From Spirochaetia bacterium (GTDB lineage: Bacteria; Spirochaetota; Spirochaetia; DSM-2461), in the NCBI GenBank assembly GCA_963666985.2, contig CAXXIA010000002.1, positions 1,760,001 through 1,824,000 of the forward strand: a stretch of DNA of 64,000 nt, in the 5' to 3' direction. Below are positions 30,001 to 33,000 of this stretch, in pieces. The position numbers are program-made. The first letter of the stretch is position 1, and each line of letters begins with the position of its first letter.

Positions 30001-33000
30001 CTGTATTGAACACGCTGAGATCGTGTTATTGCTAACAGAATTTCTAATGCCATATTATCAATAATACACTTAACAGCTGTTGATGCGCTCCGGCCGCTAA
30101 AGGTGTTTAGCGGCCTTCGGGGCTCCGCCCAAATTTCGTTTTGGCGATGGCTCTTGCAGATGCGTTTTTAGAAGTTGTGTGATAAGTTGAAGAGCGAACA
30201 GGCTTTCTGCTAAAAGCAAGAGCACATGCCAACCGGCTACGCCGGACACGAAACTTCGCATACCAGCGGGCCGTTAGGTGATTTGCAAATGAGATACAAT
30301 TAGATCAAAGGAGAGCGCCTTGGGCCCTGTAGTACTTCTGGATAAGTCTACCTACCAATGCCTCAGTTCTGATGAACTACTTTGTCTAGAAAGATACTAT
30401 TTCCTCAATTTGCCTCCAATACTCCTTTACGAAATAATTACAGATCTATCGAAAAAGTCTGGAAGAGATTCAGAAGAAGTTACTTCACGGCTTGCTGCAA
30501 AATTCACTCAAATGAGTAGTTACGCTAACGATGAGTATCGGATAGTACTCCGTTTATCACTTCTTGGAAGGCCGGTGCCAATGACACGTCAGGTTCTCAT
30601 TGCCGGTGGAGAGAAAATCAAAGACGAAGAAGGGAAGGTCGGGATTTTTCTAGATGAACCTCCTGAATTTAAGGCATTACGAGAATGGGAGAATAAAAAC
30701 TTTTCAGAGTTTGATAGAATCTTTGCAACAGCATTCAGAAAGTATAAAGATAGCTTCGATTTCGAATTGATTACGAAGAAAGATTCAGACTTCAAAAAAA
30801 TATGGAGCGAAGTCAATTCACTGGAAGATGCCCATGATAGCGCTGTTTTACATATTGATAACAAAGAGAATACAGCTCAGATGCTTGAATGGGCTATGTC
30901 GAGTATCAATCTCTCAAGCTTAGAGAAAAGTGCGGTTCGCAAACTGTGGAGTGTTAAAGGAAAACCGAATCTTTCTGACTTCTCACCTTATGCAAGATTT
31001 TGCATGATTGCGTCATTAACAGCGTTCATAGGAATCAGTAAAGGACTATTAGGCTCTAGGTCTTCAAACATGATAGATCTCGAATACCTTTATTATTTAC
31101 CTTTTTGCTCCATTTTTTCTTCAAATGACAAATTTCAACTACAACTAGCACCATTATTGATTGGAGATGATCAATACATCGTTTCGGGTGATGTTCTCAA
31201 AGATGATTTAGCAAAAATAATCACATATTTCTCAGGATTCACGAAAGAAGATCATGTTGCTTATCGAAAGCATAGAGGCAGCCACCCTCCTGAAATCGCA
31301 GACTCGTTTACTTTGAGTGTATGGGAGACGCTATGCTCGCCAGTAGATCCAGAGGCAGAAGAAAGGTTACAGAACACCCCACATGACGAGATTCTGAAGA
31401 AGATAAAGCCAATACTGGAAGCAATTAAGAAGCAAGAACAGAATCGGGGAAACTAGTTAAATACGAGCAAATCACCTAACAGCTGTTGATGCGCTCCGGC
31501 GTCAACTTGCGTTGCCGCCTCCGGGGCTTCGCCCAAATTTGCCTCTGTCATAGATTTTGCGGAAGGCTGGCGGCTGTGATAGGATGGCTTTCAGTAATCG
31601 GCCGATGTTGTTCTGTCTGGCAAAATCTACACCAGTCGCCTTCGGCGAACGGCAAACTTCGCATAACAGCAGAACGTTTAATGAAAAAAAACAGAAGGCC
31701 CCTCAACAGTTCGGTATCCTGTTTCGCTAATAGGTTTCATTTAGTAGCTGAGAAATTAAGCAATTATGCAAAAAGATATATTTGTTAAAAAATTGCCGGA
31801 TACTACCTATGCAGATTCTCTTCTCACTCTACGTTTTTCCTTTCTTAGACGTTTTCGAAATTTTCGAATTCTAATTTTTGTGTATTGCTGAAGATTCTCC
31901 CATTCAACGCGAGTTGATATTATCCCTTGTCGCTCGAACCGAAACTTAACTCCTGATAGAATTGAATCAGTTTTAACGAGAAATCCATCCCTTGCATCTT
32001 CCAATTTTAAAGCAGCAACTGTTTGCTCAGCTATGCCTAGTCCTTCTCGATCCGTTGAGTAATAGAACGTTACAATTTTTTTTGAATCAGAGCCAATCTG
32101 GTGGTCTATATGAAAAGCAACTAACGCAAGATGCCAATAGTCGTTTAGCTTTGTGTCAAATCTTCCGGACTGGATTATTGGAGGAAAATAAATATTGTTA
32201 AGAGCAAGAATAACAGAAATAGTTAGCGGTGATTGCACAACTCGATAAAATGCCAATGATAGTACTGGGTCTCGAAGAGAATTCACCTCATTCTGAAGTG
32301 ATACAGCTTCTGCATATAGTGGACTAAAGTGAACGCCTATATTGACAAAGCGGAAAGTCTTGAACCAATGATGGGTAACAAATTGACGTATCTGTGGATT
32401 GTAAAGGCGTACACGTTTCGTAGCGAATAAAAGATTGATAAATGACGGATATGCTGCCCGACGACTTGTAAATAGAAGGATTCTATCAATTGCATGAAGA
32501 GTAATTGATAGAATGTTAACGCTGATTTTTGTGCTATTGTAATAATGTCGATGCAATCTCAAGGTTTTCTGAACTAACCATTTTAGCAAGAATGCTAAGT
32601 TTGCGACGCGAGAAGATGCATTAAGCGATTCATTTAGTAATGAGTTACATTCTTGAAGTAACGTTTCACCATCTTCAATTGGAATAACGATTACGTTATC
32701 ACCAATCTTTCCATATCGTTCTAGAATTCGAATCGCATTTGCATGAACATGGCGATCATGTTCTTCAATTTGGTCAAGTGCATCACGTATGAAATTATCT
32801 TTAACACGACGAGAAATGGCAAATGCTCCAATTGACGACCCCAACAAAACACCAATAACACCAATAATGGTCCGAATTTGCTGTGCTAAGGATGCAAGAG
32901 TTTCAATAACGCTGACTTCATCTGACATATTTTAAAATATACATGCTTGAAATCCATAACGATAGTAATTGATTTTACAAATACATGATTATCAGGCATC

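Follow-up and report, generated by a model that had tools for sequence, protein, structure and literature searches.

A chromosomal array of attC sites of 199-277 nt with a conserved branched fold, adjoining an IntI-like recombinase without the I2 insertion

Is a long series of large, branched repeats on a bacterial chromosome an integron-type cassette array, and which recombinase serves it? The window analyzed here is a 64-kb stretch (64,000 nucleotides) of contig C2, to which all positions refer unless the contig is named. Our preferred reading, to which we assign a probability of roughly 0.7, is that the locus is a sedentary chromosomal integron-type array with giant attC sites, recombined by an adjacent 277-aa relative of IntI that does not have the I2 insertion.

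In an independent pattern scan of the whole genome, 83 paired attC-type sites were found on the plus strand of C2 (C2:1779213-1933530), the same number of paired cores that the genome-wide survey's note had given for this strand. The plus strand of C2 carries 89 5' cores and 88 3' cores, and the other strands and contigs carry 0 to 3 cores each, which is approximately the chance level. The array spans approximately 154-156 kb and contains at least 83 cassettes, and 27 of the 83 sites are located in the window. The longest ORF is on the minus strand in 34 of 76 cassettes. The GC-skew minimum is at approximately 1.70 Mb, which places the bottom strand of the attC sites on the leading-strand template, the arrangement reported for the largest SCIs (PMC5371416). 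The genome is 93% complete, and its host is probably a spirochaete because the closest relatives of the integrase come from Spirochaetaceae and Marispirochaeta MAGs. A repeated 1.2 kb insert adjoining attC sites was considered as a group II intron, which was ruled out; the insert is an IS481-family transposase and has no intron match in Rfam.

All attC sites in the window are on the plus strand. The first is at 19209..19426 (218 nt), followed by sites at 20269..20476 (208 nt) and 21822..22039 (218 nt), two sites of a long class at 22756..23027 (272 nt) and 23932..24208 (277 nt), and sites at 25041..25248 (208 nt) and 26401..26609 (209 nt). The site of the original finding is at 30068..30279 (212 nt), and downstream of it are those at 31474..31682 (209 nt), 33073..33285 (213 nt), 34671..34877 (207 nt), and 37549..37757 (209 nt). 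Two further sites of the long class, at 37987..38255 (269 nt) and 42216..42485 (270 nt), are each preceded by a mini-cassette of 233 nt, and between them are the sites at 40824..41035 (212 nt) and 41774..41986 (213 nt). The remaining sites are at 43311..43521 (211 nt), 44627..44834, 46696..46903, 48178..48385, and 49291..49498 (208 nt each), 50656..50868 (213 nt), 55526..55733 and 56815..57022 (208 nt each), 58334..58548 (215 nt), and 59617..59824 and 62510..62717 (208 nt each).

Measured from RYYYAAC to GTTRRRY, the 83 sites are 199-277 nt long with a median of 212 nt; one site is 199 nt, 29 are 205-209 nt, 36 are 210-218 nt, one is 232 nt, and 16 are 269-277 nt, and 82 of the 83 exceed 200 nt. 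The range and median reported in the survey's note, for which 82 sites had been measured, are thereby reproduced. The range of 57-141 nt that it had given for described attC sites is stated as 57-141 bp in PMC5371416; elsewhere the length is given as approximately 60-150 nt (PMC11641012) and that of the attC VTS as 20-100 nt (PMC4889954). Every attC length found in print is shorter than the present sites, and a literature phrase search on long attC sites returned none that was longer. The sites are approximately twice the longest attC size on record, and the working size range is extended approximately two-fold, to 277 nt here and to 376 nt in a Firmicutes MAG. All but one of them also exceed 200 bp, the length up to which callers accept sites. 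The suggestion that size limits caused such arrays to be overlooked is plausible because two papers give 40 and 200 bp as the minimum and maximum attC sizes of their IntegronFinder runs (methods of PMC13203075 and PMC7067208).

The boundaries of the sites carry the signature of cassette exchange. Under a crossover at G/TT, the R' tail of each site would belong to the following cassette and match the R'' of that cassette. In 75 of the 82 neighboring pairs, the four bases that follow GTT are complementary to the four that precede the AAC of the next site (permutation mean 5.0, maximum 13); complementarity is found at 7 nt in 69 of the 82 pairs. Within a single site, tail and head are complementary in 5 of 83 only. 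For example, the attC at 30068..30279 has the tail AGGT, and the site at 31474 has the complementary head ACCT. As judged from these sequence signatures, the view that the sites are genuine cassette recombination sites is supported.

A putative attI adjoins the integrase gene and appears to receive cassettes. Its crossover core, GTTATAAGCC (18054..18063, plus strand), lies at a distance of 88 nt from the start of intI; in reverse complement, it matches the head of the first attC, GGCTTATAAC, exactly. Cassette 1 (18055..19420, plus strand) contains the ORF of an EEP-family nuclease at 18248-19162 (Pfam PF19580 and PF03372) and its own attC. The attI core forms the left edge of a block (18054-19422, 1369 nt) that is 100% identical to cassette 75 (153135-154503 on the scale of the window), with GTT at both ends. 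Two further cassette pairs, of 1301 and 1236 nt, are 100% identical, with copies bounded by GTT, and one tandem pair is 99.9% identical; the array has apparently been active recently. A scan with the sigma-70 consensus, which may not be that of the host, detected no Pc promoter near attI; it gave one site, inside the first ORF, fewer than the shuffle mean of 2.6. In the only runs that contain the locus (X1 and X2, one sample, as Logan contigs), the joints at attC edges are flanked by no more than 30 nt on a side, as is usual for repeats.

The predicted fold of the bottom strand is that of a branched attC. Each site has R boxes with the triplets AAC and GTT, and its imperfect R/L stem would enclose a terminal structure of approximately 165 nt with two junctions. 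At the outer junction, hairpins 1 and 2 would meet the L stem and stem 3; at the inner one, hairpin 3 and the central stem would join stem 3. In the attC at 30068..30279, the folded and recombined strand would be the minus strand. Its elements, in plus-strand positions, are hairpin 1 (GGCCGCTAAA / TTTAGCGGCC, 10 bp) at 30092..30115, hairpin 2 (bottom strand GGGC-GGA-GCCC, a mini-hairpin with a GNA triloop) at 30120..30130, the long central stem with a variable tip (helix 5) at 30141..30232, and hairpin 3 (top strand CCGGC-TAC-GCCGG; GTA triloop on the bottom strand) at 30233..30245. The R' core GTTAGGT is at 30273..30279, and the crossover would occur within its GTT. In the predicted R/L stem, four nucleotides bulge out beside R' and a single one on the L'' arm, and there is a G/A mismatch; these positions differ from those of the canonical T/G extrahelical bases. 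The outer R/L stem, the three side hairpins, and the central stem described in the survey's note are, like the junction stem, present in the folds and backed by covariation. The fourth arm that it had described for the longest sites was not found as such; in all 16 long sites, GGCCGAGC..GCTCGGCC is in place of GGGC..GCCC, and the extra approximately 60 nt are within hairpin 2, which becomes an arm of approximately 75 nt, and therefore the number of arms is unchanged.

With DNA parameters, the mean folding energy of the bottom strand over the 83 sites is -44.4 kcal/mol, versus -31.2 kcal/mol for dinucleotide shuffles (z = -4.1); the earlier shuffle mean of -25.7 kcal/mol was not obtained. The top strand is nearly as stable (mean -42.4 kcal/mol), and the bottom strand is the more stable of the two in 64 of the 83 sites. 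The outer helices, comprising the inverted R''/L''...L'/R' boxes with their AAC/GTT triplets, are 99.8% paired. In 66 aligned sites of the short class, 89% of the cells are paired, a value that is favored because the fold predicted for the first sequence was transferred to the alignment. Among 62 pairs, 29 have changes on both sides (shuffle mean 21, a count of 29 being reached in 0 of 500 shuffles), and 366 cells are changed on both sides, whereas shuffles give 140 and slid controls no more than 95; the sequences are paralogues, so these counts do not represent independent events. Changes on both sides are found in 9 of the 10 pairs of hairpin 1 and in 7 of the 16 pairs of the central stem. 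RNAalifold recovered only 27 pairs from a MAFFT alignment because the hairpin loops are gapped inconsistently in it.

Strand-specific features are prominent in the sites. There are 116 copies of the motif GCGNAGC, described as an extraordinarily stable DNA mini-hairpin (PMC13037366), on the bottom strand, spread over 75 of the 83 sites, and one copy on the top strand; the bottom-strand density in the sites is 6.3 per kb, against a whole-genome value of 0.26 per kb for each strand. For GNA triloops closed by 3-bp stems, the counts are 176 on the bottom strand and 8 on the top strand. The outer stem has 66 G.T pairs and one A.C, and stem 3 has 68 and 4; this asymmetry indicates a bias toward the bottom strand in these helices, and no such asymmetry is found in hairpins 1-3 and the central stem. 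The GCGNAGC-type mini-hairpins, being essentially confined to the bottom strand, may fold first and act as staples, which would draw the long spacer into a compact shape, place L' and L'' next to each other, block misfolding, and bias the choice of strand. This suggests a testable means by which long single-stranded sites are kept foldable.

It is also conceivable, and in our judgment unlikely, that the side hairpins have no function: the sites would be young paralogues homogenized by cassette genesis or gene conversion, their palindromes kept by templated repair, and their length the product of a neutral ratchet of insertions in the VTS. The sites of one SCI are typically alike (PMC4889954), and a handful of stem types accounts for most sites here. 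The long class derives from one insertion of approximately 60 nt whose loop is mostly unpaired, and in one subclass the central stem closes an unpaired loop of 73 nt. Hairpin 1 occurs in 29 different versions across the 66 aligned sites; 27 of these versions form the full-length hairpin, and the other two are unpaired at the end bases only. Against a lack of function, approximately eight different stem sequences of hairpin 1 keep full pairing at the same position, the hairpin loops vary yet remain GNA, and covariation is above both the shuffled and the slid controls. The layout is also preserved across genera, down to hairpins of 3-4 bp in the 90-nt sites of relatives. A branched VTS is by itself not new, as "complex branched secondary structures" have already been described for VCR sites (PMC5371416). 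Nor are the side hairpins required for recombination as such, because relatives with the same integrase type have sites of 82-99 nt with only rudimentary versions of them.

The recombinase gene beside attI (17133..17966, minus strand) is intact and encodes an IntI-like tyrosine recombinase of 277 aa without the IntI-specific I2 insertion. The residues R133, K158/K161, H222, R225, H248, and Y257 are invariant in 17 relatives, and the catalytic residues are thus conserved. The best match in the PDB is VchIntIA (2a3v) both by sequence (E = 7e-46) and by Foldseek (E = 1e-18). The score against TIGR02249 is 220.2 bits, below the cut-off of 265, and the match is confined to two stretches of the profile (positions 2-177 and 240-314). 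Relative to canonical IntI, approximately 42 residues are missing, including the I2 helix: residues 179-200 are in place of chain residues 181-245 of 2a3v, and in the AF2 model (pLDDT 89.7) the next helix after H169-179 is H199-213. The spacing from GSGLR to HxLRH is 93-95 in 23 short forms (99 in one, L085) and 134-152 in 41 canonical ones. The survey's note had called the locus an integron; the array, the attC boundaries, and the attI agree with that name, and the integrase, which has no I2 insertion, falls outside the definition of IntI. This absence, which the note had overlooked, is the more surprising part of the finding and a second reason for which such arrays would go unnoticed. Recombination of attC sites is regarded as dependent on the I2 domain (PMC7790495 and PMC4792948), and activity of a recombinase without it on attC would be unexpected because deletion of the additional domain abolishes the activity of IntI1 (Messier and Roy 2001, cited in PMC7790495). 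A search of the open-access literature by literal phrase match found no natural integron integrase without the additional domain.

A different account, somewhat less probable still than functionless hairpins, is that the array is a relic or is driven in trans: it was built by a canonical I2-bearing IntI, which was lost, unassembled, or carried on mobile elements, and that the short recombinase acts otherwise, for example on double strands in a Xer-like manner. The requirement for I2 reported in the two papers cited above speaks for it, as does the incompleteness of the genome at 93%. The short integrase also scores above the cut-off of NF040815 for XerA (224.6 v 220 bits); phmmer, however, gives 160 bits with VchIntIA versus 140 and 119 bits with both solved XerA proteins, and the genome carries separate XerC/D-like genes. 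No match above the TIGR02249 cut-off was found in a search of this whole, 93%-complete genome, and profile searches found no canonical IntI in G000, G017, G005, and G013. Two genomes with a short integrase, G022 and G033, have a canonical IntI above that cut-off as well, a point in favor of this account. In G033, however, the two integrases each flank their own attC family, and the family beside the canonical one is different, with sites of approximately 169 nt.

The position of the cassette copies and the genomic company of the short integrase argue further against recombination in trans. The 100% identical cassette copy is located exactly at the attI beside the short integrase. Arrays that show this tail/head signature adjoin short integrases in G022, G017, G033, and a Firmicutes MAG (L037), and repeat arrays adjoin them in a Marispirochaeta MAG (L027) and a Patescibacteria SAG (L029). 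The attC sites beside these relatives' integrases are 82-376 nt long, and they come from spirochaetes, one Patescibacteria genome, and one Firmicutes MAG. The adjacency thus holds in at least 7 loci from 3 phyla, a count that is limited to the inspected loci (L013, L014, L015, L027, L029, L037, and the window) and leaves out DPANN and Nomurabacteria, because the screens for 11-mer recurrence and for 7-nt tail/head chains were too insensitive across all 64 integrase loci.

The recombinase of the array is accordingly most likely, as far as gene context and sequence indicate, the adjacent 277-aa IntI relative. We infer that the bottom strand folds in vivo, that the short integrase is the catalyst, and that the hairpins help folding. 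By analogy with known integrons, the bottom strand would fold as single-stranded DNA, and the neighboring integrase would exchange one strand within the GTT/AAC triplet; recombination between two attC sites would excise a cassette, and that between attC and attI would insert one. A much weaker rival, in which the branched core is an RNA-level or regulatory element (a transcript stabilizer, cassette insulator, or small RNA) rather than an aid to the folding of single-stranded DNA, is improbable: covariation is blind to DNA versus RNA folding, transcripts of both strands may cross the sites given the 34 minus-strand cassettes, and the hairpins are G+C-rich (52% GC in attC versus 38% in the cassette bodies), but no site has an Rfam match at the gathering threshold, sequence inspection found no terminator-like T runs after the hairpins, the enriched GCGNAGC is a DNA-specific mini-hairpin on one strand, and the layout shrinks to hairpins of 3-4 bp in relatives' short sites.

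A broader proposal is of a natural lineage of IntI relatives that never acquired I2 and that operates fully functional integrons; in this one, the giant attC sites would staple themselves. We advance it tentatively and rate it at somewhat under even odds. In a careful tree, the short integrase and the canonical IntIs fall together, apart from the Xer proteins of the same genome (100/100), and the canonical IntIs make up a single clade (100/99) with the short integrase outside it. A topology holding the spirochaete short clade together with the canonical IntIs was not rejected (p = 0.16). In a quick tree, forcing the query among the canonical IntIs gave p = 0.705 in the AU test, and the constrained tree outscored the short free search.

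A 200 bp ceiling and an integrase test that demands I2 would miss such arrays on both counts, and integron censuses may therefore undercount whole lineages. In the view of the field, acquisition of I2 made single-stranded attC recombination possible; an apparently active array with an I2-less IntI relative makes this view directly testable and bears on the origin of integrons. If the broader proposal is true, recombination of folded single-stranded attC sites needs no I2, and these elements would be living examples of the "functional intermediary forms" invoked for the chicken-and-egg problem of attC and I2 (PMC4792948). Many arrays filed as integrase-less might then hold an unrecognized short integrase, and the 75 archaeal genomes with attC sites, only 6 of which have IntI (PMC9668308), would be one candidate set.

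Among known systems, XerC/XerD, which act on the attP of CTX-phi in its folded single-stranded form (IMEX), and the archaeal XerA are likewise tyrosine recombinases without I2. Xer recombinases integrate single-stranded phage DNA by a single strand exchange (cited in PMC7790495), which shows that folded single-stranded DNA can serve as substrate for an enzyme without I2. Xer serves the resolution of chromosome dimers at dif and is hijacked by phages, whereas the recombinase described here is a dedicated one beside attI and a cassette array, in a genome with separate Xer genes. Canonical IntI (TIGR02249; 2a3v) has the same catalytic residues and is the closest by sequence and fold; in contrast to it, the short integrase is below the family cut-off and is without the segment that includes I2.

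The chromosomal integrons of Treponema are similar in combining a spirochaete host with a chromosomal cassette array. The IntI of Treponema probably has the insertion. The attC sites there are shorter, at 63-132 bp (PMC3607928). The superintegron of Vibrio cholerae differs in its VCR sites, which are approximately 120-129 bp (PMC5371416), and in VchIntIA, which has the I2 insertion; the sites described here have a 4-nt bulge in the spacer between the R and L boxes and a VTS made of GNA mini-hairpins, and in 34 of 76 cassettes the longest ORF runs on the other strand. In other respects the two resemble each other: both are very large chromosomal arrays of homogeneous attC sites with a branched terminal structure, and in both the leading-strand template carries the attC bottom strand, duplicated cassettes occur, and the function of many cassettes is unknown or defence-like.

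Direct-repeat analysis of the window (C2 positions 1760001-1824000) revealed repeats of ~210 nt by the dozen, from 19.2 kb on and on the + strand only. When the whole 4.86-Mb genome was scanned by pattern (5' core AACAGCTGTTGATGCG, at most 2 mismatches), 89 5' cores and 88 3' cores were found on the + strand of contig C2, and 0 to 3 on each other strand or contig. The 83 paired cores lie between C2 positions 1779213 and 1933530, and 27 of these sites, including the one at 30068-30279, are located in the window. Measured from RYYYAAC to GTTRRRY, the attC sites are 199 (n = 1), 205 to 209 (29), 210 to 218 (36), 232 (1), and 269 to 277 (16) nt long with a median of 212 nt, which reproduces the figures of the genome-wide survey's note (83 pairs, 82 of them measured; 199 to 277 nt, median 212). 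Unpaired 5' or 3' cores were observed in the array at 71072, 154740-157203, 160233, and 167013, counted from the window start; they are probably attC sites degraded or split by insertions.

With DNA parameters, the bottom strand of the sites folds with a mean energy of -44.4 kcal/mol, compared with -31.2 kcal/mol in dinucleotide shuffles (z = -4.1); the top-strand mean is -42.4 kcal/mol, with 64 of 83 sites having their more stable fold on the bottom strand. The predicted fold starts at its base with the R stem (AAC/GTT plus a G.T pair) and a 4-nt bulge. Next come a spacer stem of 4 bp, a G/A mismatch, and the L stem, in which 1 nt bulges from the opposite arm. Stem 3, hairpin 2 (GGGC-GNA-GCCC), and the 10-bp hairpin 1 branch off the outer junction. 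Stem 3 in turn opens into the inner junction, from which hairpin 3 (CCGGC-GNA-GCCGG) and a long central stem, variable at its tip, emerge. For covariation, 66 of the 67 short-class sites were aligned (the remaining one straddled two loci), and 62 pairs were tested, which come from the first sequence's fold minus its variable tip. Paired cells amount to 89% versus 81.3% in shuffles, a measure inflated by the use of one member's structure and of paralogous rows; the real support for the predicted structure comes from the compensatory changes. Both sides have changed in 29 of the 62 pairs (shuffle mean 21; 29 reached in 0 of 500 shuffles), and cells with changes on both sides number 366, against 140 in shuffles and at most 95 in slid controls. 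Among the hairpin 1 sequences, 29 are distinct and represent about eight stem types; 27 of the 29 fold at full length, and the other two pair save for the end bases.

The survey's note had assigned a fourth arm to the long subclass; none of the 16 sites of 269 to 277 nt has an extra arm, and in all of them the additional ~60 nt lie within hairpin 2, whose stem (GGCCGAGC/GCTCGGCC) encloses an A+T-rich, mostly unpaired loop. The GATACGC subclass (n = 7) and one further long site have a central stem of just 8 bp, which closes a loop of 72 to 73 nt. Each GATACGC site, 269 to 270 nt long, is preceded by a mini-cassette of 233 to 235 nt (37754-37986 and 41983-42215 in the window; 72177, 73908, 136550, 145297, and 145797 on the same scale), in none of which was a convincing ORF found. 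The seven are 94 to 99% identical among themselves, and two are in tandem.

The bottom-strand specificity of the outer stem and stem 3 comes from two invariant G.T pairs (G.T versus A.C: 66 versus 1 and 68 versus 4, respectively); the other helices are symmetric in this respect. A further asymmetry, which had not been noted, concerns GCGNAGC: the bottom strand has 116 copies, spread over 75 of the 83 sites, and the top strand a single one. Its density is 6.3 per kb in the sites and 0.26 per kb per strand genome-wide, and GNA triloops on stems of at least 3 bp number 176 on the bottom strand versus 8 on the top. The literature describes this motif as a DNA mini-hairpin of extraordinary stability (PMC13037366), and together with the strand bias this favours a role of the motif in the single-stranded DNA of the recombined strand. 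That the hairpins are without function is rather unlikely.

Three signatures point to cassette recombination at these sites. First, in 75 of 82 consecutive pairs, the tetranucleotide that follows GTT is the reverse complement of the one that precedes AAC in the next site (1,000 permutations: mean 5.0, maximum 13), and the match extends to 7 nt in 69 of the 82; head and tail of the same site are complementary in just 5 of 83. This is the expected product of G/TT recombination with each cassette an independent unit. The seven exceptions are mostly across long intervals that hold unpaired cores, and the unpaired cores coincide with most of these breaks. Second, the first attC head is exactly complementary to GTTATAAGCC at 18054-18063, 88 nt from the start of the divergent recombinase gene, which marks the putative attI. 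Third, cassette 1, the one at attI, and cassette 75 share a 1369-nt block at 100% identity, which runs from the GTT of attI (or of attC 74) to the GTT of the cassette's own attC. Two more cassette pairs, bounded by site cores, are also 100% identical (1301 and 1236 nt), and a tandem pair reaches 99.9%. That identical copies have such edges, and that one of them occupies attI, indicates that cassettes have moved recently.

The cassette bodies, with a median length of 1203 nt, are poorer in GC (37.6%) than the attC sites (52%) and the genome (51%). Defence-like domains were observed in cassette genes at 20531-21760, 35084-37372, 39636-40769, 44870-46684, and 57089-58309, i.e., DUF3644 with an EC042_2821 nuclease-like domain, Mrr_cat with nSTAND3, Schlafen AlbA_2, a KAP NTPase, and a CAP12/Pycsar TIR effector. 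By ORF length, a crude measure, 42 cassettes have their longest ORF (at least 60 aa) on the + strand and 34 have it on the - strand, an unusually high share opposing the array. Three copies of an IS481-family element (38268-39560, 50880-54340, and 59836-61130; 397-aa transposase with rve and LZ_Tnp_IS481 domains) each begin ~12 nt past the GTT end of an attC (ends at 38255, 50868, and 59824), which may reflect site-targeted insertion; the middle copy is split by another transposase gene pair. An IS3-family element lies inside a cassette (27168-29567), and the ALIL pseudoknot at 28614-28730 (RF01497, 100.6 bits) is its frameshift pseudoknot. The cumulative GC-skew minimum at ~1.70 Mb on C2, a putative replication origin ~60 kb left of the window start and just ~80 kb from the array start, makes the + strand of the array leading and places the attC bottom strand on the leading-strand template, as in the largest chromosomal integrons (PMC5371416).

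The integrase adjoining attI is encoded on the - strand (17133-17966, 277 aa). It scores 220 bits against TIGR02249, below the 265 cut-off, and covers profile positions 2-177 and 240-314 only. Compared with VchIntIA, the Vibrio cholerae integrase (2a3v), its residues 179-200 replace chain residues 181-245; it scores 160 bits against VchIntIA versus 140 and 119 bits against solved XerA proteins, and its catalytic residues are invariant. In an AlphaFold model (17 relatives, pLDDT 89.7), just a loop and short strands are located between helices 169-179 and 199-213, and the top Foldseek match is 2a3v (E = 1e-18), with XerA next. Of the 80 best relatives from genome contigs, 64 had a parsable ORF; the GSGLR-to-HxLRH spacing is 93 to 95 in 23 of these (99 in one, locus L085) and 134 to 152 in 41, and an insertion of ~42 residues is confined to the latter. 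A tree of 43 rows (21 short forms, 20 long forms chosen by hand to span their clade, and two Xer proteins of this genome), with the insertion columns removed and the fragmentary or long-branched L023, L058, L047, and L071 left out, places the short and long forms in one group that excludes the Xer proteins and L085 (100/100). Canonical IntIs form one clade (100/99; 100% of bootstrap trees), and nine spirochaete short forms including the query form another (98/90). The tree gives no resolved order among short lineages, and constraining the spirochaete short clade with canonical IntIs was not rejected (AU p = 0.16). These results show the short form to be an old, conserved lineage (36 to 45% identity) rather than a recent deletion, and both an ancestral and a derived origin are compatible with the tree.

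An integrase homologue (E of at most 1e-30) is present in 15 of 41 related genomes, this one counted. Arrays adjoin short integrases in G022, probably the genome that the survey's note called G016 (144 to 146 nt), in G017 (91 to 99 nt), in G033 (82 to 146 nt; L015 on its contig C2), in a Marispirochaeta MAG, and in a Patescibacteria SAG (~102 to 110 nt). Within the genus of the present genome, homologous sites of ~200 nt occur in 4 of 13 other genomes, and three sites of G013 span 194 to 207 nt from AAC to GTT. A Firmicutes MAG array (L037:238-4725, PGZN01000027.1), whose adjoining short integrase lacks I2 as judged by length, has five attC-like sites of 261 to 376 nt. All 4 of their 4 pairs show tail/head complementarity at 6 of 7 nt, and the bottom-orientation fold is very stable (-86.5 against -68.9 kcal/mol); these sites exceed those of C2 in length. 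Sites of 90 nt in relatives still carry the 4-nt bulge and mini-hairpins, e.g., GGC-GAA-GCC, and the branched, mini-hairpin variable terminal structure (VTS) is thus a family trait, scaled up here. In G033, a canonical IntI adjoins its own array of ~169-nt sites of a different sequence family (L128:1380-8818, contig C3), and the two arrays, each with its own integrase type, argue for cognate integrase-site pairs. The ~169-nt sites are likewise above the literature maximum of 141 bp.

The array is most likely a working integron variant, with catalysis by the short integrase putative (probability about 0.7). The attC bottom strand would fold, the short integrase would exchange one strand at GTT, and the mini-hairpins would pre-organise the long spacer. 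The read data for the locus are assembled contigs and uninformative on excision. That the array is a relic, or is driven in trans by a canonical IntI, appears improbable. Canonical IntIs do occur in this group, being present in G022 and G033; in this genome (93% complete), which has separate XerC/D-like genes, no match above the TIGR02249 cut-off was found. Action of the core at the RNA level is the least probable reading, the GCGNAGC bias favouring single-stranded DNA.

In the open-access literature, we found neither attC sites longer than 200 nt nor natural integron integrases without the additional domain. The lengths given are 57 to 141 bp, with a VTS from 3 nt up to complex branched structures in the V. 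cholerae attC sites (PMC5371416), ~60 to 150 nt (PMC11641012), and 63 to 132 bp in Treponema (PMC3607928), and the VTS is put at 20 to 100 nt (PMC4889954). IntegronFinder has been used with an attC size window of 40/200 bp (PMC13203075, PMC7067208), and one group raised the maximum to 300 (PMC13616975). IntI is defined by its additional domain (PMC9668308), and the origin of I2 and attC has been described as a chicken-egg paradox for which intermediate forms are awaited (PMC4792948).
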